The notes under the pieces were generated by a model. It was given only the letters and a program-made list of their open reading frames with translations, made no database searches and had not been told where the DNA came from. From positions 186,001-250,000 of the forward strand of contig JAAOMT010000531.1 in assembly GCA_016748015.1 (NCBI GenBank): a DNA stretch of 64,000 nucleotides. Reading direction: 5' to 3'. The DNA comes from Geosiphon pyriformis uo1 (taxonomy: Eukaryota > Fungi > Glomeromycota). Within the stretch, counting starts at the first letter, position 1. Every line of letters starts with the position of its first letter. The position numbers and the translations under genes were made by a program. Shown one piece after another: positions 5,040 through 63,765 of this stretch.

Positions 5040-5233
5040 CACCATCATCATCATCATCATCACCATCCAACCACGACAACTCAGACGCCGAATCGTCGAC
5101 TAGCACATATTCTTTCGGAACAAAAACGACGCGAAAATATTAATTCGGGCTTCGAAGAATTAAAAAGTATAGTGCCTAGTTGTCGTGGATGTGCTGATTC
5201 TAAAGCCGTAATTTTACGAAAAGGTAATTATCA

Positions 5234-5284
<51 letters not shown>

Positions 5285-5481
5285 GTTTAAACCTGTTCGA
5301 GGTATCAAAGAAATCCATTTTCTTTTATGATAAAGACCAATCAATAATCATGAGAGAGAATGTGGGAGAAAGAAAATGTTTGAGAATCGCGGATTTAAAG
5401 CCTCGGCCTGCATCTGCTAATGTTTTGTGAATCACTATTCATTTGGAAGATCGCGTAATCCTCTTGATGATTGATTTATTA

Positions 5482-5540
<59 letters not shown>

Positions 5541-12189: not shown

Positions 12190-14004
12190 CATTGTTGGTC
12201 CCAGTGTTGCTGTAATAAAGAAGTCTGCTAAAAGCTTTAGTGCTGATACTGTTAATAAGAATGTTGCCTTTAAGAAAAAAAAAAGAGCGGTGTTTTAAAA
12301 AACGGTGTAGCTTAGAAAATGGTTTTGTCTAATAAAGCAGTTGGTAGTTCTTGGGGGTCTAAAGCTGGGGATACCACTGAATCCGACAGTGTGGACATAG
12401 AAGAGGAGTTTTTGATTAAAGAGATTAGTGTGGATTATGGAGAAAAAAATGTTTTAGAAGGAAAAAACATTAACTAAATACTTAAAAGGTCTAGGGTGGT
12501 TACTAAGCAAGCTTTGGGTAAACCTCTGGGCAAAATTGATTTTTTGGGCAACAATGATGATGATAATGTTCTGTTGGATGTTCCTTTAGAACTTTCTTCT
12601 TCTTTGAAAAATTTGGTTAATGTCTCTGTTCGGAAGTTATTTGCTTTAGATATTGGATTAGAAAAAGTGATTAGAAGATCCTCTCAAGAAAAACTTTCTG
12701 TGGTCAGGAAATTATTTTCAGGAATCAATGGTTTTGGAAGGGCCTCTACCCTCTCAAAATTTGCTGGGATTATCAAAGTGACATTCACTTCTGAATTAAG
12801 CTTGGCACAGACTTTAAAAAAGGCTGAGGATGCAAAAATCTTGGTTAACACCAATCTCAAGAAATCAACTGGTCAATTGGATTGGGCTGTAGTGGTGAAA
12901 AAAATCCCAGTTGAAACATTAGCTAAGGCTGTGTGTGCTGCGCTTTCTGAATTTGGTTCTATTGTGTCGATCAAAATGTAATTGGTAGGACTATGGCAAA
13001 AAACTGTGGTTAAATTCGCCCAATTGAATTAGGCTGATTTGGTCGCAGCTAAATGGTCTATCTTGATCGGGAAGGATGCCGTGAGAGTGGCTAAGGCTAA
13101 TTTGGACAAGGAATCATGGGACACAAGGGATCAGCATAGGGTTTTGCTCTATACACTGCTGATGGGCACTAATGCACATAATATCTGGAACTTCATTGGT
13201 TCTGTGAATGGGAAAACATGTGTCATCAATTGACACCCTGTTATGTATACCCGGGCCAGGTGTGCTATTGTTTGTTTTGACTCTGCTGCTTCAATTAATA
13301 CTGTTATGGAAACTACATTTGTCTTAAAGGGTGCCAATCTGTGTTGGGCTTACTTGGGTTCTGCTAAGTATGCTAAGTGTGAGAATTTGGGTTATACATC
13401 TCTGAATTGTTTTGTGAATATGAAAAATTCTCCTGGTGGACTGGCTCACAGGATATTGTCTGAGAATGATAAAAGCAAACTGGCTTTTATTTATGCAAGA
13501 TGCTCTGCTCTAATCTCTCACCCTGTGTCTTTTGGTGGTGTTTTATGGACCAATATTGTTGATGGGTCTTTTTTCCTTTCTTTCTCTGTAAGTATTGACT
13601 CAGGTTCTTCTGGTTTCTCTTCAGGAATAAAACCTATCCCAATGGTGTCTGTAGAATTAAACGATAGGTTTGCTGCTCTTAAGCATAGTCTTGCCAGCCT
13701 CGTAGAACACATTGATAAGTTGGCTAAGAGGTTGGACTTACTTGGGCCAATGGTTTCCCAGCCTAGCTCTGGATGTTAGCCATTGGTGACCTCTTCATCA
13801 CAGAATCAAGGGGCAGATATAGTGATAAGTGAGGGTTCAGGTGTGGCCACTGGTGGTGAGATTATTGTGAGAGTGGTGGTTTTTAACTCTTTGGTTATCT
13901 CTAAGTTGGAAAAAACTCTGAACAATCTTTCAGTCACAGTTATGGGCCTCTTGGCCAAAATTAACAATGCTGGTCTGGTTCCTGTAATTCATTCTTCTCA
14001 ATGA
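12190..14004 (+). pseudogene. LINE ORF1 (Gag-like, degenerate CCHC knuckle), premature stops
   Basis: Fragments 12496, 13039, 13243 and 13783 share one frame. The knuckle remnant YAKCENLGYTSLNC corresponds to YTKCEQFGHISNMC in copy 2. The 5' boundary is approximate. Confidence 0.8.
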
Positions 14005-17000
14005 TAAGTCTGGTTTGGAAAATTGCAACATGCAATGTTCATGGTATCAATGTTCTTGCCAAGCAGGAAGATGTTGTTTGTTGGCATATGGATTCTGGAA
14101 ATATGATTTCTATTATTATGGAGACAAAGTTGAGGTTTAATGCCAGGCCTTGAATTATAAACAAATTTAATGGTGTGAGAATATTCTCTTCTGGTTTAAA
14201 CAAAGAGTTTCTTGGTGCTGGGGTGGCAATTATTATGAACAACTTCTTTGTCCATCATGTGTCTAAAGTTGAGGAGATTCCTAGTCATTTGGTTTCAGTT
14301 CAGCTTCTTTTCAAGGGCAAATTGTCAGTAGTGATTTTGGGCTTATATGCAGGTGTTTTTGCTGAAACAAGGTTTGGCCAAGCTTGCAAAATCAACTCTA
14401 TTATTGCCAAGACTGCTAATTCTTCTACATTTGTGGTTTTGGGTGGTGATTTCAATAAGGATGGATCCAAAAAAAGTGCTAGTTTTAAGTTTTGTTCGAA
14501 TTTGGGGTTGGTTAACTCTTTTAGTGGACATTCTTTGGTCAAAGCTTCTACTTGGGACAATTCCTGGGGTTCCATGAAGATTATTGACTACATTTTTGTG
14601 AGCAAGAATTTGGCATCCATATTGGCTGGTCATGAAGTTTCTCCTGTCTCTGAATTCTTTAACACTGATTATAATGCTGTTCTGGTCTTGGTTGGTTTGG
14701 GTGGTCTCTTAGATGCTCAGCTCAATGATGAATGTAAGCAGGCCAATAAAGATAAGTGGAAATTCAAGATCAAGGATGCAGATGTTAGTAAATAGACACA
14801 CTTTAGGGAACATTCATTAAACAAGTTTCTGGAATATATGGATGAATTCAATGCTGCAAAGAACAATAAAAATCTGGATATTATGTGGAAGATTTTTAAG
14901 AAAGTGGTTATAAGCTTAGCTAATAATGTGTTTTTTAAACAATGGTTTAGCAAGTTCAATTGTCAAAAAAATAAGCAGTCTTCAAAATTTTTTAGCCTGA
15001 AATTGTTAGTAGCCAAGCTAATGAGGTGTTTGAGTTTAGATCAGAAATCAGAAGCTGTTCATCTTTTTAAGGTGTGGTCTACTCTTGATAGCAAGGGGGC
15101 CTCCAAAGCGTGCATGATGTTTGGTGATAATGAAAGCAGAAAGAGCATTCTTTAACACCTATCAAGAGTCAAGAAATTGTACAGAAAGTCCAAATACTAT
15201 AAGTCTAGGGTGGCCAGAAATACTTCAATCAGGAAGACAATAGACAAGTGCATAAAAAACTTCAGCTCCAATAAGAGGCTTATGATCAAAAGTGTTTTGG
15301 AAAGGCCATTCAGGAAGATAGTGTTGGACCATCTGATTGTAAATGATAAGTTAATTTTGAAACCCAAGGAAGTTTTATCTGCTGTTGATGGTATCATAGA
15401 AGATTGGACAAAAAAACGAATCACTTCTATCTCTGTGTCTGCTCAATAGTATAGCCAATATGCTCTCTTGGACTATGTCAGTGATAATGCATTTTCAAAT
15501 GTCATGGGTGTAATTGGATTAGATGAGTTTCTTTTGGTGGTCAATGAACTGCCTAATGGAAAAGCTGCTGGCATTTCTGGTATTCCTAATGAGCTTTGGA
15601 AGCATGGTAATGTGCAGGTTCTGAGTGGTTTGTTGGATATTCTCAATGTTTGTTTAGAGTTGGGTGTGGTTCTTCTGCAGTGGAAACAAGCCTGGATTTC
15701 TATGATACTGAAACCATATGACTGGAAGGGAACTCTTACCAATACCAGACCTATAGCCTTGGTTGAGACAGCCAGAAAAATACTGTTAAAGGTTCTTTCT
15801 AACAGGATATCTCTGGTGTGTAGTAAATTTGATGTTTTCCATGGTGATAATTTCTCAGTTTTGAAGGTTATGTCTACTCAAACCCTAATTTTTACCATTG
15901 GCTCTATTGTTGAGGATGCACTGGAAAAAAATAGAAAGCTGTGGCTGGTACTTTAGAATATGCAAAAGGCTTACGACTCAGTTGGATGGCCCCATTTGAG
16001 GAAAAGTTTAGTTAGAATCAAGATGTGTTCCTGTTTTATTAAGTTTTTTGGAAACATACACAATGGTCGGACCAACCAAGTGATGACAGACTTTGGGCTT
16101 ACTGGGAAGTACACTGTTCATGATGGGTTGGATCAAGAGGAAGTCTTTTCACTATTGCTGTGAAGAATCTTCTATGATCCTTTGCTTTGTGAGGTCAAAA
16201 AGCATAAACAATTGTGTGAATATAGATTGAATTCAGAATTTATTTCTAGGACTGGCAGAGCTAATTTCAAGAGTGGCAAAACATCCTTTTTTGCAGCTGG
16301 TGCTTTTGTGGATGATACTATTTGGGTTGAAAACTGTTTGGCAGCTACACAGCACATTTTAGACATTGTAAGTGATTTTTTCTTGATCAATGACATTGCT
16401 ATTAATACAGACAAAACAGTTGCTATCTCTATTAATCAAAGGACCAGAGAGGTTTCATTGTCTATCAGTGGTTCCAAAATCTCCATTGCCAAAAAGGGTG
16501 AATTTTACTATTACTTAGGGATTTTTATTTCTATGGATGGCATGTCTAAGCCAAGCTTGGCCAAAGCTCATTCAGACGTCAAGTTTTTCTCTAATGTGGT
16601 TTTAAGGAAAGCCATTACTAAGAAGCAATTTCTGTATTTGGTCTCTGCTGTTCTGCAGCCCATAATTGGATATAGGTTGCAGTTTAGCTGTGTTTCCTAG
16701 GGTGTGTGTGAAAAATGGGACAAAATGTTAAGAAAGAGTTTAAAGCTCAAGGCCAATCTGCCTAAGGATTTTCCAAATGAAACTTTGTATCATCCTGAAT
16801 TTTATGGCTTAAAAACTTTTGAGCAAGTGATGTCTGAGAATATGTTGGCTGGTCTGGTTAAATTCACTAATGCTAACAGAATCTTTGGTGAATTATTCGA
16901 ACACAAAGCATTGGAGTTATAGGCTGCTAGCTAGATACCTTGGCACCCACTCAAATTTCTGGTCAAGTTGTCAGTCAATTCTGCAAATTGCTTTTTGGCT

Positions 17001-18689
17001 GGCACTACATGTGCTCTCAAATTGTGCAATCTGTTATTGGGCAGTGACCTGCCTAATGTTTTTCAGGCCAGAAATTGGGTTGCTGTCTTGGATGTGCTTG
17101 GTTTTGAAGTCTATTTGGACATGGTAAAGTCTCTTAAAAGATATGGTGTGGTGTTTGTGAACCAGCTTTTGGATTGCCACGGCAAGTGTTTTATATGGAA
17201 CACTTTTCGCAGATCGAAGAAGCTGGATCCTAAAAGCCCAATTCCTGCCTAGTTTGCTTCTTTGGTCAAATTTATTGTTGGTGGCAGCTTGTCAAATAGT
17301 GAGTTGTTGTCTTCCTGTTCTGATCCCACTGGCTTTTCTTGTGACTTTAGTTATGTTGGTGAGTGTCTACTGAATTCTGAGTTGGACTCTATACTTGTCT
17401 ACACTGATGGTTCTGTAAAGAATTTGGGTTCATTACATGCTTGTGGTGGTGCCACCACCTATTTTCCAAATGTGGACACTGGTATTGGGATTAAGGTGGA
17501 TAGGTTGCTGTCGTCAACTTTGACAGAGATGCAGACCATTGCACTTGTTTTGAAGTGTGTGCCCATTTCTTGTTCAGTTGATTTATACATGGACAGCCAA
17601 ACTTCACTAAACATATGTATATCCGCCAGTAGTATGTCTGGTCCTGATTTCCATAACAAATGCTGGATTGAAAAAGAACATATTTGCCGTGTCATTGCAA
17701 GAAAAAATTTGTCGGTTATGTGGAATAAGATTAAAGGCCATTCTGGTGTGGTTGGAAATGAGTGTGCTGATTTCTATGCTAATACAGCTGTCACCTCTAA
17801 GTCCTTCCTACCTATTGCAATATCTTATTAATTTCTTGTTGTTGAAGGCAGATCTGTTTCTGAAAATGCTTGTTATTTTGCCAAAAAATTGTTCAATGCT
17901 GTTCACACCATTGGTTGGGAAGCCAGATGTGTTGGTAGCATTGTTGGTGTGGATCTCAATGACCATTTTGATAAGGCCAGGACATTTTGTGTTTGGCATC
18001 CCAATGGCAGGATCAAATCTGGTTACATGTGCACTGCATCGGCAACACTTTGGTCATAACTCATAAAAGTGTTCTACTATCGCTTGCCTATGACCAAGAG
18101 GAAAAAGATGTATAATCCAAGTTATCCAAGTATTAACTGCATTCAGTGTGGTTTGGTGGAGAACTCTGATTACGTTTTCTCTTATGATCATGATGTAGAT
18201 GTTAGAAATACTTTGTTATCTGATGCTAATTTGGAGTGGGATGTGTTGCTAAACACTTCTGCTGATGAGAATGCAATTGCTGGTTTGCTAAAAGAGACTG
18301 CTTTTTCTATGGACTTGTATATGTTGCTGGCTAAGGGTTTTATACTGAAGAGTTGGGTGGTTGACACGGTGGGCCAGTTGGGTGTTGGCTCTAATGGGGA
18401 TACATTGGTTATCAATTTCATTTGTCGTTTTGCTAAGAATTACAGATTTGCCATCTGGCTGCCTGCAACTAAGTTGAGAGCCTACTATGAGAAACATAAT
18501 CTCTTGCTAAGTGATAGGTTACCTATTCCTTCAGTGTTTGGTTTAGCTTTTTTGTGGACAGCTGGGATGATCCAAGATTTTGGTTTCAAGCTAGATATCC
18601 ATGTGTGTTTTGGATTGCATCTATGTTTAACCAGTTTGGATTTTGGTTTTCTCTGTGGCATCCCTGTAGTGGGGTGTTTAGATGTGTAG
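14001..18689 (+). pseudogene. LINE ORF2 (AP endonuclease, reverse transcriptase, RNase H, C-terminal Cys/His motif), ~1560 codons with >=12 in-frame stops
   Basis: APE motifs: WKIATCNV, ETK, GDFN, IDYIF. RT motifs: KAAGISGIPNE, RPIALVE, KAYDSV, GLDQ, GAFVDDT, YLG. RNase H motifs: VYTDGS, DSQ, KGHSGVVGNECAD. C-terminal motif: CIQCGLVENSDY. All listed fragments are in one frame from ATG 14001. Confidence 0.92.
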
Positions 18690-23252: not shown

Positions 23253-26200
23253 TTTTTTATTTATTTAATGAGTAAAGTCTAAATATGGCCTAATACTATA
23301 CATCACATAAATAATCTAAACTAGGTGTGAATTATGCATTTGCTATATGTGACCAGCCACTCAGACCAATCAAAACAACAATAAACACCTATACAAACAG
23401 AAACTATGTTTCTAATATCCAAGAAAAACAGACAAGACTTACAAAATACAAAACTAATATCAAACACATTAGCAATACCCAATAATCTAATTACACCAGT
23501 TGAGAGTACTACTAGAAGACCAGAAACTGAGATGGGAACAGAACTGTTCTGTAGGATCAAGCCACTTTTTTCTATAATAGCCCAGTATTTAGTATGTACT
23601 AGCCAAATATTATTCCGGAAAGCAAACCAAAATTTGTGCACAAAAAATACAATATTCTGAGCTGCAACCTTAAGGTTTTTAAAAATATAAACAGATTTAC
23701 AATACCAATTATTGAAAACAAAGCCTTTACACAAAGCAGTACCAACAACAATATCAGAAATGCAAGTACACAACAACTGTGATACACAAAAAGAAGAGCA
23801 AAATAAATCCAAGTATGTCTCTCAAGCAGATACATGAACTTTTATTAACTGTGCACAATCAGCAGTGTCAAAAGAGCAAGAAAAAACATGGTCCAAGACC
23901 TCAACATCTCCACAGAACAAACACACTATACTGAAGTAACACTTATTATAAAGTTACTTACATACTGTGACAGAAAGATAATAATACAGTGCCTTCATAA
24001 AATACAAACAAAAGCCAGCAGTGCGTGCACTAGTAAAACCAGCAGTCAAATAAGAATCAGAATGCCATACCAATAAAGATCTGGACCAATCAACATTAGC
24101 ATGCAGACCATCCATCAAGACATAGAAACCAGAACCAACCTCCCAATGCACACAATAAATAGATTGGAAAATATTATAAACAAAATGCTGAGAATTATTA
24201 GAAACTGCTGTGCCATCAGCTTGAAGAAAGTGTTTACTGACCACATGAAGTAGACACCTATCTGAGAAAGCAGCAGCCTTAGCAAAAGCATTAGCATGCT
24301 TATTGCTGAAGACACCAGAATGACTCTTAACTTTAATCCAATTAATGTCCAAATTCTTGTGATGAATAACATTAGCAATATAGTGATGCTTAATCCAACA
24401 CCAATTCTTAAAATCTGGACAAGCCAACATAAACTCTGATTTGCATGCATTCAGAGCAGCTTGGCTGTCCAAAAACAAGTCGACAGAATGAAAAGAAAGA
24501 ATACACTTAAGAGTCAGAGCAATGGCCTGCAATTCTGTTATCATAGAGAAAACCAAACCAGAGACTTCAACCCCCAGGCCCAAATCAATGTCTTCAAAAA
24601 AACAGTAGTACCAGCCATCACACCAGAAGTTCCCAGACTACTTAGAAATCCATCTGTGTACACAAAAAAACAAGCATTATTAACTTGCAATAAATTAACA
24701 CTAATGACACCAAAATTATGACATCCAAAAGTAAAGAACAAGCAGAAGAAAAAGCCTTACCACCAAGAAAATAAACAGCAAGCTCAAACCAGATGGGAAC
24801 AGGACCATGAGGGTCCAATCACTTTTACTACTTAAAAGTTGTCTAACTGAAAATGGCATCATGTTTGTTATACAGCTGGTTCACAAAAGTGACTTCATAA
24901 TGCCAAAGAGAGGAGACATACTTAAAATAACTAGGCTTACTAAGAACAAGAGACATAGGAATACCACTTCAAAAACAAAATGCACTGGCTGGAGATTCAC
25001 CCAAGAACAAATCACAACCAGAAAAAATGTGAATCATACCAGCCAAAAAATTGTTTAAGAAGTTGATTCTAACATGAGCCAGAAAATGTAAAAGGTGGTG
25101 AAAACACCAGCTAAAAACCTGAAAATCATAAGATTTGTGGAAAAATAACCAACCCAAAATACCCAATAAATTTGCAAAAGAAACAAGAGAGACCAATTTG
25201 CTTTCGGTCTAAATTTGTTCAAAAGTTTTTAAACCATACAATGAAGAATGATGAATTGCTTCAGTGGGGAAATTATGTGGGAGACCAGACCTAGACTTTA
25301 AGTCCTTGCAAATCATAGCATCCTATTTACTACAAACACTAATAAGAACAAAACTGAATTAAGTTTTATAATTGACAATAGAAAAAAGAACTGCTAAAAC
25401 CAAATATGCAAACTGTTTATTTAAGATTGCCTTTCTTAGAACAAGATTGACAAAAAACCGAACATTCAAATATGTCTTAGCCAAACTAGGTTTCAACAAG
25501 CCCTCAAAAGACAAAAAAATACCCAAATAATGATGAGGTTCCTTTTTTTTGGCGATAAAAATAGGTGAGCCACTAACAGTTAAATAAGGATTAGAAACCC
25601 AGCAGTTAATAGGGATGACTACAGTCTTGTTATTATTTATGGAAATGTTATTTAACTTAAAAAAATCATTAGCAACATTAAGAATGTGTTGTATAGCAGC
25701 CTGACTATTACCAACCTAAATTGTATCATTGACAAAAGCACCAGCAGCAAAAAATGATGTTATCCTGGCCTGAGATTCTGCCTGGCCAGACTTGAAAACA
25801 AAATGAGAGTTCAACTTGTAACCATATACACCCTCCTGTCTTTTAACTTTACATAGAAGCGAATCATAGAATATGCACCAAAGAAAAAATAAGAATACTT
25901 TCCCTTGGTCCAAACCATCATGAACACAATACCCATCAGTTAAGCCAAAGTTTGTCATCACTTTGTTAATGTAACTATTGTGAATACTACCAAAAAATCT
26001 AATGAACTTGTCACACATCTTGATTCTAACCAAATTCCTCTTAAGATGTTCCCAACCAACAGAGTCATAGGCCTTATGTATGTTTTGCAAAACCAGTCAC
26101 AGTTCACGGTTCTTTTCCAAAACATCCTCAACCACTGAGCCAATAGCAAAAATAGGTGATTGTGTCATCATCCTTTTTAAAACAGAGAAATTGTCTCTAT

Positions 26201-29200
26201 GTAAAACATTATAAGTACTGTAAGTTAAAGAAATTCTATCTAAAAGAATTTTGGAAAGAATTTTGCAAGCTGTTTCAATCAAAGCAATAGGACAGGTATT
26301 TGTAAGAACACCTTCCCATTCATATGGCTTAGGAATTATTGAAACTTATGCTTTCCTCCAAGATCCAGATACTAATTCATGAGTTAAACACAGATTCAAG
26401 AACACAGAAAACATATTCAAGACTGAGTTGTCACAGTGTTTCTACAATTCATTAAAGATGCCAAAAAGACCAGCTGCTTTTCTATTAGGCAGATTTAAGA
26501 CCACAGCAAATAATTTGTCAGAACCAATTAAACACATCACATTGAAAAATACACCATTAAAAACATAATCCAAAGGCTGATATTGGCAAATCCAATTATC
26601 AGAGATATCGAACACCACTCTATGTTTCCTAGTTCAACTCTCCATAATCTTATCTATTTTAGACTTAACCAAATCAGGCTCCAAAACCAACTCATTGTCT
26701 ACAACTAAGTGATCCAATACTACCTTGTGAAAAAGATGTTCCAATACACTTCTGATGATATGACCTTTATTTAATTCAAAACTTTTTATTCTACTGGTAA
26801 TGGTCTGTTTAATGTGAGATTCCTCAGCACACTTGAATTCCAGTAACTTGGAAGAATGGTAAAATTTCCTTGCTTTTGCCAATCCAGAACAAATAGCATC
26901 AAAAATAAAACCTGAAAGAAAAAAAGACTTTATTTCAGCTGCACCACTAGAGTCAAGCCTGTCCCATGTACCCAACAACAAAGCAAAATTTTCACTCGAA
27001 ACCAAATGAGAAGCTTTTACCAGCCTAAACACCAGCAACTTCAGTTTATGAAACTTAAAAGACACATTGGTAAAAACACTGTCATAATCTTTGAACCATT
27101 TTCTTTTAAATGTCCCATTGGTAGAAAAAACCATGACCCTATGAACAATATCCCATATTATATCCAGATCTAAAGACTTCTCAGCTGCTGTAAATGCACT
27201 TGAAAGCATAGCAGCATTAGCAGCTGTGGGATCCCTAAATTTACACCACTTCCTTTCATTGGCACTTTTAACATCAAATTTCCAATAATCTTTATTTACC
27301 TGCTTACACAGTGAAAACAGCTGAACATCTAACAAACTATCCAGACTCACAAAAACAGAAACAACTATGTGATCAGTATCAAAATAATCTACAACACTAG
27401 TTATATTGTAACCCACCATTGTATTGACCAAATTTAAGAAAATAAATACATAATCAATTGTCTTAGCAATTCCACAAGAATTGTACCACGTAGGTATCTT
27501 AGCAAATGAGCTTCTGGCCAAAAAATTGACCAGACCCAAATCAAAGCACTTTTTAAAGCTGGCATATTTATGAGATTCATTCTCATTGAAATCACCACTA
27601 AGAATAACAAAAAAAGATTTATTTATAGCCTTTGCAATAAGAAAATTGATGTCGCCAGCCTAAGAGAACCAAACTACCAAAGAAGCACCAGCATACAGCC
27701 CCAAAATTAACACAGAAAGCCTATTCTTAAAAAGCAACCTGACAGAAAGGATCCAACCAGGCACTTTAGAAACTTTGCACACATGACGAGCCAAAGAAAT
27801 GTCCATAATAATAGCAATGCCAGAATCTAGGTAATCAGAATTCACCTTAGAAGTGAAGACATGAACACCATCAAACTTGTTCATAATCCATAGATAAACC
27901 TTATCCTTCAATTTAGTCTCAGTAACAATAGAAATCAAATTGTTCATTCTTTTATGCCAATAAATTATATCACCCTGCTTTGCAGGATTGTTCATCTCTC
28001 TGACATTACATGTAGCAATTTTCCAAATTAAATCAATCATTGAAATAAAAGAGGAGCTAATAAACCTAAACTAAAACACAAAAAGTCTAATCTTGTTAAT
28101 ACTAAACTGACTGAAACTTCCAGAGCTATTATCTTCAATTCCAAACCACCTATCTTGGTAATAAGAATCTTTGAGCTGCTCAAACTTAGTTCAGAAATAG
28201 CATTTCCAACCACTAAAAGAGAAGGAGAAGAAAGCACCACCACACTATCCACAGCCATATTTGAATTTAAAGCTGAGTTCAAGAGAGAAACAGCAATAGG
28301 GGAGGGGACACAAGATGGAGATAACATTGGCATTAACTCCACAAAGTTCAATTTTCTCAAAATCTCAGAAACCTGATCTGACAAAAGCTCCATGGAGCAC
28401 TCCAAAGAAGCCATGCAGTCAGCCAAACTAGAATCATCGAGAGGATTGGAAGCCAACACTAAAAGTTTTGTACTTAAAAATAAACCAGTACCAGAAAAAA
28501 CTGATAAAGCCACACAGAAAAGAGAGCCACCTGCAATTTGAGCCCAAGTTTTTCCACCAAAAGATGCTGGACAAGCAACCAAAGTCTGTTTTCTCTTATA
28601 AATATTAACTAGACGGACCTAATCCTAAGAGAATACCATCCACTTATGATAAACTTCAGAAATCTTACCAACTGAACACATATTAGAAATATGACCAAAT
28701 TGTTCACACTTGGTGTAACAAGCCAAAGAAAAACCAGCCCAATGCAAATTCACACCCTTATAAACTGGAACAAAATCAATAGCAACCAATTTGGATGCTT
28801 CATTAGCAAAACACACTACTGCACATTTATTATACACATATGAACTGGGGTTATGACCAATAAAACAAGTTTTTCCACCATATAATTTTATCAAATCAGA
28901 AAGATCATGTGCCATAGTGCTTATTGGCAAGGTGTACAATAAAGTCTGATGGCAATCTTTTACTACTCATGATTCTTTGTCATTCACAACCAATGCAACA
29001 CAAACAGAATCTTTACTTATAAGAACTGACTATTTGAAAGCAACTGAGCTAGCCATATCTGATGACACAAATTTCACTAAAGCTTTTTGCCAAAGCCCAA
29101 TTAGTTGCATTCTAATCAAAATTACTTGACCAAATTTAAAGAACACTGACACAATTACTGATTTGGAAAGATCCACTGAGATCTTTTTGACTATCACTTT

Positions 29201-32675: not shown

Positions 32676-32956
32676 TTGGAGATTAAATGTTCACATATTT
32701 TTTATCAAACACTAATTCATATTTACGTCAACTTGAATCTGTATGGTCTATGGTTTTTGAAATTCAACGACTAAATCTCAATATGTCTGAAAATCAGATT
32801 TGATGCTAATTATTAATTTCTGCCACTTAGATTATCGCGCGGAACATTTGCAAATTTTTGAAATTTGAAATTTTTTTTTACATATATTTCTCTTTCAAGT
32901 CTTTTTTAAGTTATTTAAGTTTTAAAAAAACAGCCAATTAAGTGAGACACAGAAAT

Positions 32957-33697
32957 NNNNNNNNNNNNNNNNNNNNNNNNNNNNNNNNNNNNNNNNNNNN
33001 NNNNNNNNNNNNNNNNNNNNNNNNNNNNNNNNNNNNNNNNNNNNNNNNNNNNNNNNNNNNNNNNNNNNNNNNNNNNNNNNNNNNNNNNNNNNNNNNNNNN
33101 NNNNNNNNNNNNNNNNNNNNNNNNNNNNNNNNNNNNNNNNNNNNNNNNNNNNNNNNNNNNNNNNNNNNNNNNNNNNNNNNNNNNNNNNNNNNNNNNNNNN
33201 NNNNNNNNNNNNNNNNNNNNNNNNNNNNNNNNNNNNNNNNNNNNNNNNNNNNNNNNNNNNNNNNNNNNNNNNNNNNNNNNNNNNNNNNNNNNNNNNNNNN
33301 NNNNNNNNNNNNNNNNNNNNNNNNNNNNNNNNNNNNNNNNNNNNNNNNNNNNNNNNNNNNNNNNNNNNNNNNNNNNNNNNNNNNNNNNNNNNNNNNNNNN
33401 NNNNNNNNNNNNNNNNNNNNNNNNNNNNNNNNNNNNNNNNNNNNNNNNNNNNNNNNNNNNNNNNNNNNNNNNNNNNNNNNNNNNNNNNNNNNNNNNNNNN
33501 NNNNNNNNNNNNNNNNNNNNNNNNNNNNNNNNNNNNNNNNNNNNNNNNNNNNNNNNNNNNNNNNNNNNNNNNNNNNNNNNNNNNNNNNNNNNNNNNNNNN
33601 NNNNNNNNNNNNNNNNNNNNNNNNNNNNNNNNNNNNNNNNNNNNNNNNNNNNNNNNNNNNNNNNNNNNNNNNNNNNNNNNNNNNNNNNNNNNNNNNA
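32957..33697. other. Assembly gap (N run); 20-N gaps also at 2546, 7309, 32163, 40088 and 42275
   Basis: Runs of n. Confidence 0.99.
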
Positions 33698-33957
33698 ATC
33701 AAACATACATGGCACTTTTTTAAAATAATATAATTTTCACTCAAAAAAACATACATAAGTCTTAAGTGAATAGACGAATGAAAAACATTTTGTGATTCTT
33801 AGATAATTAAATACTTAAAACTTTTTGTTTTAATTGGGCGGGTACAATTTTTTCTGCATTTAGTCAAGAATCTTTACAAAGAATTTTAAACTAGCATTAG
33901 TTTCTTATCAATCCTTTTTTTATTTGTTGTAACGTTTTCGTCATTGTCAAAATTCTG

Positions 33958-37432: not shown

Positions 37433-39452
37433 ATGGCTGTTGTTGAAGATATTAAACGTCAATTAGAGGTGGCTACGACCCATTATGAGAGATGCGTGTA
37501 GGAGCTGAAGGAGTTTAGGAAGGGTGAGAAGGGAGATAGATTAGAAGAGTTGAAGAAGAGGCTGAGAGAAGAGGAGTATGTGAACGAAAAGGAAATGAAA
37601 AAGTGGATAAAAGAGAAGGAAGAGCTGGAAGAAGAAGTGAAGGAGCTAAAAGTAGACAAGAACAAGTGGATAGAGGAGATGCAAAAATGGGCAGAAAAAC
37701 TACGTGCAGCAACAGATGATACAGGTAACTTGAGACATAGAGTAGATTTGTAAATTCACTTTCCCATCCATACCATCTATATTACTATTCATTCATTTTG
37801 TAATCATATGCGTTTTATCGAAGGAATATCCATATTTAAGAGAATATTTGGTGTATAACGCTTATCTCTTTCTATTTCTATGGTTATTCTAGAACACCTT
37901 GCGAAGCGTGCTAGACTTGACATGCCTAACAACACCACACCATTTCTAAAACTTCTCTGTCGTCCCTTCGATGAACCAATTACACGCAGCAATCTTGAAC
38001 ACTGTTTTACCTCAAAGTTACTTCAAAAATTGCCAGCTGAACCCTGTCTTTGCCGGAGCCTTGAGGATTATCTTGTACCTAAATGTTCAGAAGCTCTCTA
38101 CAATGTTCCTAGATTGAGTGCAATCGTCAGTACCATTTTAAGCAAGTCCTTCACAGAGTGTGTCGGACAAGAAGAACGGACCACAGATGGTATCAATGAT
38201 CACATTTTGGACATGATTACATTTTTCAGCCAATATATCGCAACTCCATCGCTAAGATGGAATCGTAATGGAATAATAAAAGATACGAGTACCATCACAG
38301 AAAACAAAGCTCGGCTAGATATCACAGTTTATTCCAACGACTTGCTTGTAATGATTGGTGAAGAAAAAGATGTTAAGGGCAAGTTATTAATCACAGCAGA
38401 ACAACTGGATGATTATTTTCAATTTTGGAATCCACTTGCCTTCCGTAACTTACCATTTGTTATAGCGTTTGCAGCGGGGTGTACAAGTTTGCAATTTTAT
38501 TATCACTACGTGGACGATACAACGGGCTTGAAACCAAGACGTGAGGCAATTGGTGAACGTCTGATGCTTGAAAGTGTAAACCGAGGATTCAATTATCGAG
38601 CACTTCAGTACACAATCAATTTTATTCGGGTCCTTCAGACTTTGTCTCAAGATCAGTACATTGAAGCTTCAATATTAAAGCTATTCGATGAGGTCAAACG
38701 GTCAAATGGTAGTGTTATAATATTCCCCGAAAATATCATTAAAAAAATAAATAAGTCAAGCATTGTTAATCTAAAATTCCATAAAGAATTTTACGAAAAC
38801 ACGCTTCCATACTTAGGGCCAATCAGGGTTCTTGATTATAAAGTTTCAAGTTACTTAATGATAGTAAAATTGACTCCAGTTGGCACTACCGTAATTCCTA
38901 AACGTGAACCGAGCTGCGAGATGCTATATGGTATGTACTTGTAACACTAGAAAAACTTCATAAGATGAACGTCGTCCATCGGGATATTTGCTGGGATAAT
39001 GTTTTAAACTCCAGGATGTTAATTGACTTTGAAGAAGCTGCTCCCTTAGGAGGTTTAAGGTGCAGTGAGATAAAAGAATTTCGACTTACGGTTAGACATA
39101 TTTGCTAATTGTTACTTTATAAAGAACCCCATTGTTTCTAGGAGCTCCAGAATTTAAATCGGGGCGAGACTTGTGTAGCGCTGCAGGCGATATATGGATG
39201 GTTGGAAATCTTTTCAAACATTCTAGAATTTACAACCATATTCCACTTTCTTCATCCGCTCAAAAGTTTAGGAAAAAATTGATGAACGAAAATCCTAATA
39301 GTCGACCGACTGCAGATGATGCTCTAAAAGATGGGTGGTTTAATTTGCAAGAGGAACAATTATCTATAATGCAAACTTTGACTTTTAAACACCCCATATT
39401 AAATGCACTGATGTACAATTATGTTATAAAAGAATTTCAATACCAAAAGTAG
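37433..39452 (+). pseudogene. Crinkler/RHS-like protein: coiled-coil header + restriction-endonuclease-like domain + protein kinase; inactivated
   Basis: Exon 1 (37433-37724) has an in-frame TAG at 37499-37501, followed by intron 37725-37892. Exon 2 has AKRARL and the PD-(D/E)xK-like RLDITVYSNDLLVMIGEEK. After a frameshift at ~38905-38912 come VHRDICWDNVL..LIDFEEA, then GAPE, DIWMVG and NPNSRPTADDALKDGWF. Confidence 0.78.
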
Positions 39453-55892: not shown

Positions 55893-57011
55893 GTCAAGAA
55901 TTCTAGCATTAACAGTTAAGAGGTACACGTACAACTTGAACCATCCATCATCTCTCTCCGTTTACAACCATCACCCCTTTTTTTCGCGTAGTACTTTACT
56001 CCTTCATCAATGATTCCTTAACATCCCACTCTTTAACCCCTTCTACTGAAAACCGTGCCACCACACTCACCTAAAATGATTAATTCGAAAATAAAAAATA
56101 TAACTGATCTTGATATTTTTAAAAAAATTACGAAGAAGAAAATTCATTAGGAATGAAATTAGTTTAATAGGGTGGTGTGGGCAATTTTAGTAATACGCGT
56201 CTATTTGTGCTTTTGTCATTTAAAGTTTGTCTTGAGAGGATTCCTCATTTATATATCTTTACCTGTAATTAGATGAATACGGATATTCTCTTTACGATAA
56301 TATTGAAGATTGCTGCTGCTGCTGCTGTTGTGAAATTTCAAAAAAAAAAAAGACTAGAGTGTACAAAAAGGTGACCCCGACTAAATTAATATTATAAATC
56401 TTTGCCATTGAACCAATTTGTTTTTTTATTTATCTATTTGTATGTTGAATCCTCTCGTCCCTGCTAGCTAATTAATTAAGAAGTTTGATAGTAGCAGCGC
56501 AGACATCACCTCTATTCACAACGACAAGGAAAACGACCTTTCTAATTGAATAACTTTTTCAATTTGGATCTATTGTCCTGTCTAGCTGTTATTGCTCTTG
56601 CTGCTGCTGCTATCGCAAACACTTTCTATCCCTCTTTAACGAATCCACAAAAAACAAATCTTTATTCTTTGGCCTTCTTTCTCAGTTTGCATTTTCGAAT
56701 AGCCTATTTACTATCGCAACCTATAACTGATAACAATTTTTGGTGGCCACGCTTTTCATTGTCTATTAAAACACAACAACGGACACACATACACACACAT
56801 TTCGACTTTTCACTTCGGACAGTTAAACTTTTCTTCATCGCTTTGGTAAAGCGTTCTCCACTCCACCCCATCTTAGTTTTTTTCTTCAACTCCTTTTTCC
56901 CCTTGCGAGAAGACTCTAGTTGTTCTTTTCCTTTTTCTCGAACAATACCCAAATTTACAGGACCATACAAAAGAACTGGACTTCTTAATTTATGCTCAGA
57001 GCGGCGGCACT

Positions 57012-60000
57012 ATGGGATCTAATTTCGTCGATCAACCCCTGAACAAACACGTAAGTCGAAAAAAACTACTTTTGAAGAAAGTATGTAAAGGTCTTGCTAA
57101 TAACGGCATTCTTTTCAGAAACTGCAACTTGGCGACTGCCTTGGTAAAGGTGCTTTTGGCTCCGTTTATCGAGCTTTGAACTTGGAGACTGGCGAAGCGT
57201 TTGCAGTAAAGCAGGTGAAGCTCAGTAATATCCGAAAATCGGAGCTCGATGTTATCATGGTATGTGCTTTTCTCTTGTTATTTGGACAAGTTTTTGGTCA
57301 AAAAAAAAATCTTCCTTTTCCGGTATACTTTTGCTTGTCACCCATGTCACCAATGTTAACAATCTTCGTCAATCTATATTTGTCCCCAACAGATGGAGAT
57401 CAACCTGTTGCGGAATCTTAACGTAAGTTTGTCGGACGAGTGATCGCTTAAATATTTGCTACAAACATTAATTTAAAATGTCTTTTGTGTCAATCACCGT
57501 GACGCCATTTCTTGTGATTAACCGGATTGTGATTTATTTCCTTAGCATGCAAATATTGTGAAATATATTGGATTTGAAAAGACCAAGGAATCCCTGTTCA
57601 TCATTTTGGAGTGAGTAATTTTATTTTTAGCAGTTAGTTGCGCTGGAGTTTTCGTTATACAAAATCAGAACAATAGCATTCTTGATTCTATTTTTTCTTT
57701 CATTTCTATTTCTATTCTTTTTTCCCATTACTTTTAAATACTCACCAAAGCTACCTTCTATATCACACACAGATATTGCGAGAATGGGTCACTGCATACG
57801 ATCTGTAAAAAGTTTGGAAAATTCCCGGAAAATCTTGTAGCAGTTTACATTAGCCAAGTGTTGGAAGGTTTATTATATCTCCACGAACAAGGTGTAATAC
57901 ATCGTGACATCAAAGGTGCAAATATTCTCACGACAAAACAAGGATTGGTAAAATTGGCTGATTTCGGTGTGGCTACGAAGACGAGCACGTTGAATGACGG
58001 TTCTGTAGTCGGGTCACCTTATTGGATGGCACCAGAAATCATTGAACTTTCAGGTGCTACCACAAAATCAGATGTATGGAGTGTCGGATGTGTGGTGATC
58101 GAATTATTGGAGGGAAAACCACCTTATTCACATCTTGATCCAATGCCAGCACTTTATGCTATTGTACAAGATGAACATCCACCATTACCTGAGAGTGCCT
58201 CACCTGCTGTAAAGAACTTTTTAATGCATTGCTTTCAAAAGGATCCAAATCTGCGAGTAACGGCTAAAAAATTACTCAAACATCCTTGGATCGCAAATTC
58301 ACGTAAAACAGCTTCGATCGATAGTTTGCAAAATAACATAGTAACAACAGAGTATGATGAGGTTGTTCAAAGTGTTAAAGAATGGAATAGGGCATTGAAC
58401 TATGATTCTAATACAAAATTAACTCCTCGAAAAATGAGACGTGATTCCATCTCAAATAAAACTCCTCCATCATCACCCCGAATTCAATACAAACCTTTAC
58501 TTGGCATAGCGAGCACATCATCAAATTATCTTGCACCAATCGAGACAAATTGGGCATTTTCTCCAACGGTGGTAGGCTCTACAATAACAAATGATAATCA
58601 AAGATCTTCAGCATTTTTGGAGGCTGATGCTGAGGGAGACAATTGGGACGATGATTTTGAAGATTCGATTCATGTTTCGAAAATTATCGCTCTACAAAAA
58701 GATCAACATCAACAACAAGGAGAACCTGCATCCAACGAACTTGATGATATCTCAACGATACGTCCCAACGAGTACCAATTAGAAAAAATTAAGGATCTAC
58801 ACGTCCCAACTTCAATATCTTCAATAAGATTGTCGGCCTCCCCAGGCAAGGAGCAGAAAAGTCCAAGAAAGTTATCATTAATTGCCATCCCTGACAAAAA
58901 ACCCTCTTCTATTTCAAAACCTTTAAACTCCAAGTTAAACGAGTCAAAGGGTAAACCGAGTAGGCCTAAAGGGCTGCGTCGCAATAGTGAGCCTCACCAC
59001 AGTTACAATTATTCGAAAAAAAATACGGTAAAACAGCCACACAGTCGATCAATCGATTTTACTAATAAGCCGCTTCCTCCTTTACCTGGAGAATTTCCAA
59101 AGTATAGATACCTTAGTCCGCCCACATCCCCGATATCTCCTACAACTTTAGTGAACCCACCCACAATGATATATACTCCGGTGACCGGTCGAAAACGATC
59201 TCAATCAACCTCATCAAATTTTTCACCCCGATTGAATCAAAATTACGAGAACGGTTTTCCCGAAAAATTTAGGCAATATGTTGAATCTAGCGAAGAAACA
59301 TATGATGATGCATTAGACAATGAAAATAATGACGGCCAAAATTTGAAGTTAAATTCGGTCCTATCTAGTAATAGTTGGCGCGGGGATGACAATAGTGACG
59401 AAGACGACCCATTCATAGAAATTGACGAGGGATTAAGCGAGATGGACTTGCAAGCAAATATTGCCCGAGATAAACATGTTCGGGCATGTGCACGTCTGGG
59501 TGATTTGCTAAATGCGTTACGGCCAAAAGAAACCGAAGACCGATTATTAAACACGTGTAACGAGCTTTCTCGATTGTTTAATGAACACAAAGAACTTAAA
59601 AATCATTTTCTGATTTTCCATGGTGTCATTCCCATCCTGGAACTTTTGGAATTGTGCTCATACGAAAAAGTTATCGGCAAATTGCTCGCCATCGTCAATA
59701 CAATAATCGAAGATAATCAGAACCTAAAAGAAAATTTTTGTCTTGTTGGTGGAATTCCTGTGATTAAAAGCTTCACCTCGAAACGATACTCTTACGATAC
59801 CCGGCTTAGAGCTGCCCATTTTATTCATCATGTGTGTAACCAGTCGACCATGACGCTCTTGATGTTTGTCTCGTGTCGTAGCTTCAAAGTCCTTGTTGAT
59901 TTTCTCGAAGAGGATTATCATGAACATAAGAAATTGGTCCAGATTGCGATTAATGCAATCTGGAACATTTTTGAGCTTACCTCCAAGCCAAAGAACGATT

Positions 60001-61424
60001 TTTGTCGTCAATTTGTAACGAGTGGACTTTTGGGTCCATTGTCGGTGACTTTACATCAAACAATTTTGGACCAAGATTCAGAGGCTGCGACATATGTGGA
60101 AAAGATTTGTAAAATATTCCAGATATTTTCTATGTCCGAGTCTTTCGTCAAAGAATCAATGGCCACCAGCCCAGTAATCGCCCGAATCCTTGACGATCTC
60201 GATAAGTTACCACACGATTTACTTGTGATTATGCTCAAGACGATCAAAAACCTCTCGATGAATTCCAAAACTTTGGAATCGTTGGAAAGTGCTGCTGCCA
60301 TTGAAATCTTGACGAGAATCTTGATTCAGCAAGATCCAACACATCACTTGGAGGTGGCCAATCAAGTTCTTAACACCATGTTTAATATGTGTAGACTCAA
60401 CAAATCGCGACAAGAAAAGGCGGCCCATGCAGGGATGATTGGGTATTTGCAGTTTTACGTCCATTCCAAGTCTCCTCTTAAACAATTCGCGTTGCCCATT
60501 TTATGTGAAATGGCCCACGCAAACCGAGCTTGCCGAGAACTGCTGAGAAAACAAGGGGGTCTGGAATTTTATATTTTATTGTTAAAGGATCCATATTGGC
60601 AAGTTAATGCATTGGATGCAATACTAGTATGGTTACAAGAAGATTTTGCTGAGGTTGAAGCTACCCTTTTGAAACCTAATAATCTGGACTGCATAGTTCA
60701 AACTTTCATCACAGCAAATGTAAATTCGTTCGAGAACATTCTTGAGCCTTTGCACATGATCACACGGTTATCACCTAAAGTGGCACGTGGTTTATCCCAG
60801 CCGTCCTTCTTTCAGCGTCTTACGTCCCGATTGAGACATTCTAAAGCTGTTGTACGCGTAAATATGCTGCGGATTTTGCGATCTTTATTTGACGCTGATT
60901 CGACGATCGTGGATAAGTATCAGAATCTTACCGAAATTAGTGATCAAATGAGCCGAGACGATCCCTCTATGTTGGTCCGAGAACTAGCAAGGGAACTTTT
61001 AGAGGGCTACTTCAAGAATTCGAAAGAACAATCCCCCAAAAAACCTCCCTCACCAATTAAAGAGGAGGATGAATTATTTCAGCAAACGAAACAAGAATCC
61101 ATTGCGGTACCCGTTTGTAATGAAAGAGAAAATGATCAAGTTAAGGGCTCAGGAGAAAATGAGGATCCGAAAACTTATTGTGATTCTTCGAATAGTAAAA
61201 ATAATATCGTGATTAGTGCTGGCATCGGCTTTAGAGAATATCTTCAAGAAAGCAACTTGAATTTAAAACCAATTCTCTCAAGTACTCATCGAAAACATAC
61301 AAGCGAACTACATTCCCACAAATTTGGTGGCCCTGAAACGAGTTCTCATCTTCGAAACACAAGCAGGATTGATAATCAAAATCTTTCTCAAGTGGGAATA
61401 GCAGTTCGAAGGGAGAGTAGTTGA
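57012..61424 (+). CDS. sepH: Septation initiation/mitotic exit kinase (SepH/Cdc7/Cdc15 family), 1308 aa; exons 57012-57050, 57119-57259, 57393-57422, 57546-57610, 57773-61424
   Basis: The spliced frame (3927 nt) gives LGDCLGKGAFGSVY, AVKQ, MEINLLRNLNHANIVKY, LEYCENGSL, KFGKFPENLVAVY, HRDIKGANIL, DFG and VVGSPYWMAPE. A C-terminal ARM-like region (ENFCLVGGIP, PKNDFCR, SPLKQFALPILC, DPYWQVNALDAI) is typical of SepH/Cdc7. Confidence 0.95.
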
Positions 61425-61458
61425 CTAGCGGCGGTTCGAGTGGGGAACCATTCGAACC
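61422..61458 (+). promoter_or_regulatory. Putative stop-codon readthrough signal: UGA-CUAG + 8-nt spacer + 11-bp GNRA hairpin
   Basis: TGA CTAGCGGC GGTTCGAGTGG GGAA CCATTCGAACC. The stem is 61433-61443/61448-61458 (10 Watson-Crick pairs + 1 G-U) with a GGAA loop. Confidence 0.75.
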
Positions 61459-62228
61459 AGAAAATTGGGCTATCAAGTCGTACAAAATCCCAACAGTATT
61501 CTTATTTTTTATCACCCCCAAGTCCGCCATCTTCACAAATTAGAACTCGACCACGAGCATTTACAACCCCAATAACTTCATCTCTTCGAAGGGTAGCTTC
61601 CAGCATTGATTTGACCCCACGACGGATATCCATCGAACCAAACTTAACTGATTTCTATCCTCCCGTTCCCACCTCTTCATCATTGCATCCCTCCCCCCCT
61701 CAAACATCACCACGTCCACTATCACATCCTCCATACACCGCTTTATCAAACTCTCACAGCCATACCACATCTTCAGCTTCCTCTTCAACCTCACCCAAAT
61801 TCGAGCACCAACTAGCACCAACCGTTGAGCTCAACGCTCCTGATACATCCAAAACATCGTTAACCAAGTCAATACAATTTCCATACCAAGATATCCGCAG
61901 ACGCTCGAAACCTGAGAAGTTTCGTTCTTTCTCTCTGCAGCCCCCTGAAACCAAATCAGAAACACAAGATAATGAGAGAGTTACTCCCGAACAACCTATC
62001 AAAGAAGAGATTGCCACATTCGTCTCCGTAGCAACAGTTGCGAGCCACAACAGCATCAAGAGTATCGAGTATTCTTGCAAATGTCCGCTTTGTGTGATGA
62101 GTTGGGTGAAAGCGCGGTTTCGTAGAGGGAAGAATAGAAAGAAAAAATATCGAAAGCAAAAAACAATTGTTACGTCTGTGATTTCGGAGCCAGAGCCAGA
62201 GCTGGAAATGGAACCTTTGGGAAAATGA
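61425..62228 (+). CDS. In-frame 267-aa C-terminal extension of SepH beyond the UGA (putative readthrough isoform, ~1576 aa total)
   Basis: An 804-nt open frame continues the sepH frame. It has exon-like GC content and no in-frame ATG until ~44 codons from its end. It is S/P/T-rich, then CKCPLC and a polybasic RFRRGKNRKKKYRKQK. Confidence 0.7.
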   Translation, partial: LAAVRVGNHSNQKIGLSSRTKSQQYSYFLSPPSPPSSQIRTRPRAFTTPITSSLRRVASSIDLTPRRISIEPNLTDFYPPVPTSSSLHPSPPQTSPRPLSHPPYTALSNSHSHTTSSASSSTSPKFEHQLAPTVELNAPDTSKTSLTKSIQFPYQDIRRRSKPEKFRSFSLQPPETKSETQDNERVTPEQPIKEEIATFVSVATVASHNSIKSIEYSCKCPLCVMSWVKARFRRGKNRKKKYRKQKTIVTSVISEPEPELEMEPLGK

Positions 62229-63765
62229 TTATTGGCTCTTATCGAATCAATGATATCAATTTTAATGACGAAGATAAATTTATATCCACCATTTAATTAA
62301 ACAATGTTCCTTCGAACTTTCCTCTTTGAGATTTTGAACCCAGACACATTCTTTTTTGTGTTCAAACAATTCCTATAATATGTATACCATTATATATAAC
62401 AAACTTTATTAATTTGTAAAACTCAACCTACTCTTATAAATAATTTCACGCAAATCGACAGATTCTTCTATTGTATTTTTTGTATATAATTCTATTCTGT
62501 CGGATTTCTCTTAATTTTTTCTTGTATACAACAAATATCCACTTTGCGCTTATCTAAACGGTTAGGAGAAGAGAAATTTCTACTTCCTTACATAATATGA
62601 TCACTTGGGGCATAATGCCACAAAAAATTTAGGGCTTTAATATTTTACATATCACATGTACTTTGTACCAATGCAATGTACTATTTAGGCTATTTAGTAT
62701 TAATTTGAACGGGTATGTAAGTTTCCAAAACCTGGTGTTTTCAAGTAAGTCTTTTTTTTGTTGAATTGATTTTTTGTCGGCCACAGGAATTTTGTTGTCT
62801 CCAAAACAAAATATGAATATATAATGTCAATTGGTAAGTTTCAAAATTAAAGTAATATTGTCAAATATAAAAGATGAAAAGTTTTTGTTTTTTTATGTAA
62901 ATATTTAATTAATTTGACATGAATAAATTTGAAATCAAAAATATTATTATAAATAAAAATATATAAAAATTAAAAAATGATTTTTATATATGAATTTTAT
63001 TTATATATTTTTAAAATTTTGAATATTTAAAAAAAAATTATTCATAACTGTAATTTTTCTGGTCAATAATTATTTAGCTCTGAAAAGGGTTATTTTAATG
63101 GTTTTAAAATCTTAAAGTTTTTTAATTAAGTTATTTTTAAGCTAATTGTTTTTTTAAAATAAATTTTGTTAAGTGCCTACAATATTTTAATTTTTTTAAT
63201 CATTTTATGCACATTTTGATGATAATAACTTTTTCAAATGACAAAAATAACATCTTAAAAAAATTTAATAACGATGGTGTTTTTTAAAATTTACCTAAAA
63301 ACAAGGGTGCAAGATTTTTAAAAAACAACAAAAGAGCAGAATCATTCAACATGACAGTATGATTATTTTCCAAATTAATCAACTTGGGAAGTAAGATAAT
63401 ACGAATGATTAGTCTTAATTCAAGAGTGAGTTAATTTATCTTTAATTTCAAAGAATTGCAAATTATTGACCATTCTAATTCGAATCCTGTACCTTTTACT
63501 CTTTAAATTAAGAATTTTTAAAATTCTAACAATGAGAAATGAATTCCAAGGATTTTAAGAAACCAATTATGTTTTGGTTATTGGCATAATTGAGGTCATT
63601 TTTTTTCAGAATATTTTTATTACTTTTCCGATGGATCATAAATTCCTTTTGAATATTGACTATAGGATAACATCATATTATATTAAGAAATTAAAATTTG
63701 GGATTCTAACCTGAATTGTTATCACAGAAATTTTTAATTAATTAAAATTATCTTTACAATAAATC

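Follow-up and report, generated by a model that had tools for sequence, protein, structure and literature searches.

In the fungus Ustilago maydis, UGA followed by CU(A) is sufficient for stop codon readthrough, and the G at position +4 matters. Short peroxisomal tails (peroxisomal targeting signal type 1, PTS1) are thereby added to metabolic enzymes, as in Ustilago PGK and TPI and in human LDHB and MDH1 (PMC4207609). In alphaviruses, stems 8 to 9 nucleotides (nt) past UGA boost readthrough by a factor of 3 to 14, and Drosophila kelch is predicted to have such a stem (PMC3159437); in tombusviruses, readthrough is driven by long-range pairing (PMC3234231). We analyzed a 64-kb stretch of the Geosiphon pyriformis uo1 genome (contig JAAOMT010000531.1, positions 186,001 to 250,000 of the forward strand, hereafter the window), in which the septation kinase gene sepH ends in UGA-CUAG and is followed by a long open frame. 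Partial ribosomal readthrough of this stop, giving kinase isoforms of 1308 and 1576 amino acids (aa), is a very probable explanation of the locus, as judged from its sequence features.

The locus shares the stop and the +1 to +4 context, which is functional in a fungus, with the Ustilago and human genes. Those cases add short PTS1 tails to metabolic enzymes (PMC4207609), whereas sepH would add ~260 codons with three motifs to a signalling kinase, and its tail ends in ...PLGK or ...DKKH, not in a PTS1. Like alphavirus nsP3/4 (Venezuelan equine encephalitis virus [VEEV] and Sindbis virus [SINV]) and kelch, it combines UGA, an 8-nt spacer and a stem, here a predicted one, of 11 to 17 bp. The loop is of flexible length, with 101 nt in VEEV and 268 nt in kelch (PMC3159437), but 4 nt in Geosiphon and ~990 nt in L001, a Paraglomus-like contig whose 3′ strand lies past the second stop in the 3′ untranslated region (UTR). 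The latter arrangement resembles the tombusvirus pairing of proximal and distal readthrough elements (PRTE-DRTE), in which the distant 3′ end of the RNA is the partner of sequence just past the stop. The tombusvirus case, however, concerns a viral genome, in which a large stem-loop pairs over ~3.5 kb and is tied to replication (PMC3234231), whereas in the cellular mRNA represented by L001 the predicted long-range pairing is the stop-proximal stem itself.

Within the same pathway, i.e., the septation initiation network/mitotic exit network (SIN/MEN), Fusarium graminearum Dbf2 (FgDbf2) likewise comes in two isoforms encoded by a single gene, one short and one with a disordered C-terminal extension. 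FgDbf2 is a terminal NDR kinase whose UAG is bypassed by adenosine-to-inosine (A-to-I) editing in the sexual stage, yielding a short destabilising tail (PMC13123824), in contrast to sepH, which codes for an upstream Cdc7/Cdc15-type kinase with UGA-CUAG, a likely ribosomal bypass and a long tail with conserved motifs. The original prediction, made from the letters of the window, stated that no reported case of readthrough was known for a SIN/MEN kinase. Our search of the open-access literature (supplementary gene lists were outside it) brought up no account of readthrough for SepH/Cdc7/Cdc15 or for Glomeromycotina, but the editing-based FgDbf2 extension is a published stop bypass in that network, and the statement has to be narrowed accordingly. 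New here are the target gene, the length of the tail and the depth of its conservation, and a helix whose partner strand has apparently switched; the type of signal is already known.

An open frame of 267 codons follows the sepH stop codon

On the + strand, the sepH coding sequence extends to its first stop from 57012 to 61424 (exons 57012-57050, 57119-57259, 57393-57422, 57546-57610 and from 57773 on). The 1308-aa product has an N-terminal kinase domain matched by Pfam Pkinase and an ARM-like region encoded at ~59430-61000. Relatives called sepH or MEN kinase are 44 to 63% identical over the ARM region, and Geosiphon pyriformis protein P0001 is 100% identical to it. The first stop reads AGT AGT TGA (61416-61424), with TGA at 61422-61424. 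The frame then stays open for 267 codons (61425-62225) and closes at a TGA at 62226-62228, such that the five-exon model comprises 1576 positions (1308 aa, the stop and 267 aa). The first Met of the extension (61425..62228, + strand, including the second stop) is codon 225. The TGA-CTAG, the 8-nt spacer, the 11-bp GGAA hairpin, the 267 codons and the isoform sizes were all found as originally described.

This open frame stands out from its surroundings. None of 20,000 base shuffles of the Geosiphon tail was stop-free (mean, 12.6 stops), and among the 28 stop-to-stop frames of at least 150 codons in the window (six of them across a gap of N), sepH alone is followed by more than 119 open codons. 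GC content is 44 to 49% across the tail and drops to 29% only past the second stop. TGACTAG occurs a single time on the + strand of the entire window.

A stop-free stretch of 158 codons (56546-57022, + strand) begins before the sepH start and runs over it in a different frame. As it contains no Met, it is probably not an upstream ORF.

The stop context is conserved in another order of Glomeromycotina

Orthologous DNA was obtained from one metagenome scan, which yielded at least four sepH loci; scans of prokaryote genomes and viral contigs returned none. Among the loci listed, L001 and L002 are Paraglomus-like and group with Paraglomus brasilianum, L003 is Mortierellaceae-like by sequence, and L004 ends before the stop site. 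The conserved TGA-CTAG that was looked for in orthologs is present in both Paraglomus-like loci, which read AGT TGA CTA GTT GCG GTT CAA GTG GAA AAC at the stop and then remain open for 262 (L001) and 259 (L002) codons. The context AGT-TGA-CTAG (61419..61428, + strand) is identical in the three sequences, and the invariant stretch reads AGTTGACTAG..GCGGTTC.AGTGG..AAC, in contrast with a third-codon-position identity between Geosiphon and L001 of just 40% in the conserved ARM region. UGA is followed by CUA(G) in all three Glomeromycotina DNA sequences.

These data bear on the trivial explanation that the TGA reflects a miscalled base or a nonsense allele of recent origin, the true protein being the long form. 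Mortierellaceae orthologs do have long uninterrupted tails (L003 has one, and no internal stop). When contigs from four sequencing runs (X1 to X4) were compared with 56800-62600, those of X1 covered the whole region, but X1 is possibly the source of the window sequence and not independent of it. That the same TGA and context occur in two independent contigs of a second fungal order, and that a Ser stands at the matching end position in 14/14 short protein models checked, makes this explanation barely conceivable; both of these refuting options in the original prediction fail.

The tail is under purifying selection and its motifs are shared across Glomeromycotina

Selection on the tail was assessed by comparing L001 with L002. 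The two tails differ by 26.5 synonymous and 19.5 nonsynonymous changes (dS, 0.148; dN, 0.034; dN/dS, 0.23; Fisher P = 4e-6), distributed 6/11/29 over the three codon positions, and the sole indel comprises three codons. The other two tail frames hold 7 to 27 stops. The same ratio is 0.07 in the ARM region and 0.68 in the linker before the stop; constraint on the tail thus exceeds that on the adjoining 5′ stretch, whose coding status is undisputed (P = 0.001). The original prediction had named dN/dS below 1 past the stop as a check, and the value of 0.23 agrees with it.

L001 and L002 are identical over the final 24 tail codons and over the 144 nt that hold the second stop and the first part of the 3′ UTR (L001:4774-4917 and L002:2828-2971), while synonymous sites elsewhere differ by 15 to 25%. 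Identity over the 144 nt would have a chance of ~1e-9 if neutral, which suggests further constrained RNA elements or a chimeric assembly.

At the protein level the tail is mostly disordered by prediction (AlphaFold mean pLDDT, 47.7, too low for a fold search), and its sole predicted helix comprises residues 222-233 (pLDDT ~60). Three motifs were identified on the + strand. Motif 1, R-x-x-[ST]-[ST]-P (RAFTTP, 61554..61571), is a putative phosphosite whose R44 and P49 are invariant in alignment A2. Motif 2, FPYxxIR[KR]RxS (61878..61907), recurs in homologous tails, as does motif 3 (62076..62156), in which CxCxxC precedes the predicted basic amphipathic helix (V/I)xxW(V/L)K and a polybasic run. 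In 23 tail-bearing proteins, FPYxxI was found 23 times, the basic amphipathic helix 22 times and R-x-x-[ST]-[ST]-P 15 times; the latter is missing from P0001, where a predicted intron deletes it, from P0007 and from six N-terminally cut pieces. Every Glomeromycotina group sampled is represented among the protein models in which the tail motifs recur. The cysteines of motif 3 are absent from the tails of Gigasporaceae, Paraglomus and Entrophospora.

A profile hidden Markov model built on 11 non-Archaeosporales tails, i.e., without Geosiphon and Ambispora, recognized the Geosiphon tail with 33.4 bits (E value, 4e-9), compared with maxima of 3.1 bits among 2000 shuffles and 7.5 bits among 74 other fungal tails. 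FPYxxI was found in 0 of these 74 tails (extractable from 94), and Mortierellaceae tails show no detectable homology. When 1.84 billion proteins were searched with a tail profile, 8 matched, the named ones all from Glomeromycotina. There were no matches to the tail alone among 1408 candidate proteins of similar length, and a weak, word-limited search of longer proteins with the tail alignment gave 4 matches, all near-copies of the training sequences. No Pfam family matched the tail. In a quick tree (34 rows, P0067 left out), the tail-bearing sepH proteins form one clade (Shimodaira-Hasegawa-like approximate likelihood ratio, 99).

Separately, the idea of the tail as a Cbk1/NDR docking substrate via [YF]xFP (PMC4428629) was dropped, since the motif fits 1 of the 23 tails listed, that of Ambispora leptoticha (FDFP).

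Public protein models are inconsistent at the stop

The 26 Glomeromycotina sepH matches comprise 15 proteins with a tail (FPYxxI after the ARM region), 7 short ones and 4 representing a tail-less Gigasporaceae paralog. The 7 short models end at ...[DN][GI]S, 68 to 86 residues past the ARM-end motif. The second Gigasporaceae paralog (P0021-P0024) ends 16 to 26 residues past that motif, with neither linker nor tail; it is a short form encoded in the genome itself, which a duplication within Diversisporales brought about.

In some annotations the tail is a gene of its own: in Glomus cerebriforme it is C1645_274832, adjoining the short kinase C1645_274831, and in Acaulospora morrowiae it is 12720_t, which shares a 5034-nt contig with its neighbour 12721_t. 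The tail might accordingly be a separate small protein, produced by reinitiation, a non-AUG start or an internal promoter. Run X3, from a separate study, could be read in the same way: it gave a contig at 61647-62233, outside the stop site, with a depth above that of the upstream pieces, although contig depth cannot rank parts of one gene. The first Met of the Geosiphon tail, however, lies at codon 225 of 267, past two of the three motifs, and where the tail was called as a gene of its own, the positions of Met vary between species. Kinase and tail share one reading frame in all three DNA sequences, and L001 carries both on one transcript-like contig. On balance a separate protein is highly unlikely.

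Other models join kinase and tail. NCBI model P0001 (1516 aa) reaches the end of the tail by omitting 180 nt (61417..61596, + strand) as a GT..AG intron; therefore, its annotator treated the tail as coding and took out the stop. Of the 15 Rhizophagus sequences listed in a cluster of 19, 6 end at IDDGS and 9 bridge the stop via four different junctions. Several bridged models depart one or two residues before the end of the short form (IIDD|V, QEDI|T), from which we infer that the GT of GGT/AGT before the stop was used as a false donor. For P. brasilianum, comparison of model P0140 with L002 revealed two apparent false introns, one over the stop and one deleting ~58 open, conserved codons.

The stop codon is retained in transcript-like contigs

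Splicing that removes the stop from some transcripts, for instance through GTAGTT.. donors over the last codons, would make the long form a splice isoform. This is the strongest rival of readthrough, given that 5 of the 9 long Rhizophagus models share a junction and that contigs may hide minor isoforms. GT..AG introns join kinase and tail in NCBI models of Geosiphon, Ambispora, Gigasporaceae, Funneliformis, Rhizophagus and Paraglomus alike.

Contigs of run X2 contain three GT..AG joints, and because these fall exactly at sepH introns 2 to 4, we infer that X2 is RNA-derived. No joint was detected at the predicted intron 61417-61596 in these contigs, and one of them spans 61196-62600 with no gap and no variant letter, giving unspliced coverage over the TGA. 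L001 contains a single 1241-codon ORF running through all four Geosiphon intron positions, has short flanks and retains the TGA; by these features it is probably an mRNA assembly. Thus, the mature mRNA keeps the stop, as far as contigs can tell, since minor forms could be hidden in them. Run X4 had no match to 56800-62600.

Other aspects of the models also argue against splicing. The junctions conflict within one species, being of four kinds; the Geosiphon intron would remove the conserved RxxTTP motif; the skipped stretch is in frame and without stops; and the second "intron" of the P. brasilianum model is excised from open sequence that is nearly invariant between L001 and L002. Moreover, splicing leaves the invariant TGACTAG and the helix at +9 unexplained. 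We judged the 61417-61596 intron to be a gene-prediction artefact and consider splicing an unlikely source of the long form.

Stage-specific A-to-I editing of UGA to UGI, read as Trp, would likewise produce the long form from an unspliced mRNA. FgDBF2 is edited in this manner, and tests of stop-loss editing extended to FgMOB1 and FgCDC14 of the same pathway (PMC13123824); in addition, an RNA structure adjoins the sepH stop. The Fusarium system, however, is one of Sordariomycetes that prefers UAG in a hairpin loop (PMC13123824), whereas the sepH stop is a UGA outside the stem, 8 nt before it, in a context of ribosomal readthrough. No variant letter was seen at the stop in X2 contigs, which may hide rare edited forms, L001 and L002 read TGA, and no paper on A-to-I editing in Mucoromycota was found in the open-access literature. 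Editing is very unlikely here.

A predicted helix starts at the same position but with different partner strands

The original prediction attributed a stimulatory role to a GNRA hairpin after the stop. An 8-nt spacer, CTAGCGGC (61425..61432), precedes a stem formed by GGTTCGAGTGG (61433-61443) and CCATTCGAACC (61448-61458), with 11 pairs including one G-U and a GGAA loop (loop and local 3′ strand, 61444..61458; all on the + strand). This hairpin has a predicted energy of −19.4 kcal/mol and a z-score of −3.9 in 49- and 91-nt windows (0/200 shuffles as good), or ~−2 in 139- to 141-nt windows, and no other 40-nt window of the last exon is as stable. Its 5′ strand, GGTTC(G/A)AGTGG (61433..61443), is the same at 10 of 11 positions in L001 and L002. 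The loop and the local 3′ strand are found in Geosiphon only, and the first 60 nt after the stop fold weakly outside Geosiphon, at −10.1 (L001) and −8.7 (L002) versus −23.1 kcal/mol in Geosiphon.

In L001, the strand at +9 to +25 (3996-4012) can form a perfect 17-bp duplex with 5006-5022, ~230 nt beyond the second stop in the 3′ UTR and ~1 kb from the 5′ strand. The best of 1000 shuffles reached 12 bp, and the best of 197 control probes 11 bp. When the whole region of L001 was folded, this duplex had a pair probability of at least 0.97 and was accompanied by flanking helices of 5 and 10 bp. The predicted helix starts at +9 in both Geosiphon and L001 and differs at pair 6 (G-C versus A-U); the 3′ strands of these two cases, the only ones available, lack homology. 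Of the hairpin originally proposed, the 5′ strand is kept in L001 and L002 and the +9 start recurs in the helix predicted for L001, while the local hairpin itself is specific to Geosiphon.

A distal 3′ UTR partner was also sought in Geosiphon. The candidates at 62304-62319 (−15.1 kcal/mol) and 62537-62547 (−13.6 kcal/mol), compared with −19.7 kcal/mol for the local arm, are not among the best duplexes, and no such partner is claimed. The second candidate comes after a TTTTCT..GTAT stretch resembling one before the distal element of L001, and it might be a relic.

A stem directly after UGA is also found in some selenoprotein mRNAs (PMC3159437), and some early-branching fungi use selenocysteine (bioRxiv 10.1101/314781), which raises the question of whether this UGA encodes that residue. 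The five selenocysteine-using species named in the latter report include no Glomeromycotina, and the selenoproteins are oxidoreductases (bioRxiv 10.1101/314781); the sepH site lies in a disordered linker without a Cys homologue. A crude pattern for the selenocysteine insertion sequence (SECIS) had no match in either 3′ UTR, and Rfam reported no SECIS in 61200-62900. Selenocysteine is thus extremely unlikely. The Rfam scan of that region yielded nothing real, with one chance match at an E value of 0.77.

Probable readthrough and possible roles of the long isoform

Partial ribosomal readthrough, the reading of the original prediction, is supported by the conserved stop context, the dN/dS of the tail and the unspliced X2 contig. 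It is likely ancient and programmed, with stimulation by structure. UGA followed by CUAG would terminate weakly, allowing insertion of a near-cognate tRNA, and a helix starting 9 nt past the stop, near the mRNA entrance of the ribosome, would raise the rate. In Geosiphon this helix would be the local hairpin, and in L001 the same strand is predicted to pair with the 3′ UTR ~1 kb away.

Several points weigh against this interpretation. Readthrough is predicted here from sequence, namely DNA, contigs and protein models. The stop codon itself was read in DNA from three sequences of one clade (Archaeosporales and Paraglomerales), and its presence in Glomerales, Diversisporales and Entrophosporales is deduced from the ends of protein models. 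The local hairpin is not conserved, as L001 and L002 retain its 5′ strand without a local 3′ arm, and the long-range duplex comes from one contig, L002 ending before the distal strand. The dN/dS values derive from one close pair. X2 is labelled "DNA?" and stems from the same sample as X1, and its contigs drop rare splice or edit variants. Finally, the junction shared by five of the nine long Rhizophagus models, KTSV|SRKRT, could be a real splice.

If the UGA is indeed read through, the tail acquired by the long form would be regulatory and disordered; it would carry basophilic phosphosites and, at its end, a basic amphipathic helix that often has neighbouring cysteines. We take the combination of basophilic Ser/Thr sites and a Cys-flanked basic helix to resemble phospho-regulation plus a membrane anchor. 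In that event, the tail might anchor a fixed fraction of the kinase at the membrane or cortex and so set the site and strength of septation signalling, a model to which we give somewhat less than an even chance. The main alternative, by analogy with the tail of FgDbf2, is that the extension lowers kinase levels.

More tentatively, and with greater doubt, all arbuscular mycorrhizal fungi may make the septation kinase in two forms by an ancient readthrough with a modular helix, whose +9 strand pairs with a local arm (Geosiphon) or with the 3′ UTR (Paraglomus). Readthrough would then be switchable by 3′ UTR length, RNA-binding proteins or the readthrough ribosomes themselves, and could time the formation of septa in normally aseptate fungi.

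Glomeromycotina are a subphylum several hundred million years old. Programmed readthrough of sepH would thus represent recoding kept across a whole fungal subphylum, in an upstream kinase of the septation network of largely aseptate fungi. Together with the editing-based extension of Fusarium Dbf2, it suggests that fungi twice evolved a stop codon bypass to tune one pathway. Readthrough also accounts for the clashing public sepH models, some of which are short, some divided into two genes and some joined over the stop by spurious introns. It offers a testable RNA element whose partner strand apparently moved between a local hairpin and a distant 3′ UTR. To our knowledge, arbuscular mycorrhizal fungi are not easily transformed; the Geosiphon stop cassette can be assayed in yeast or Ustilago reporters.

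Other features of the window

Elsewhere in the window, a bHLH transcription factor gene with long microsatellite-encoded Asn/His/Gln runs lies at 4512-6788 (+). Broken copies of LINE-like retroelements, containing endonuclease-like and RNase H pieces, are found at 12478-18689 (+) and 23321-28618 (−). The assembly gap, a run of N, is located at ~32950-33700, and a 361-codon ORF with no Pfam match at an E value of 0.01 lies at 37859-38944 (+).

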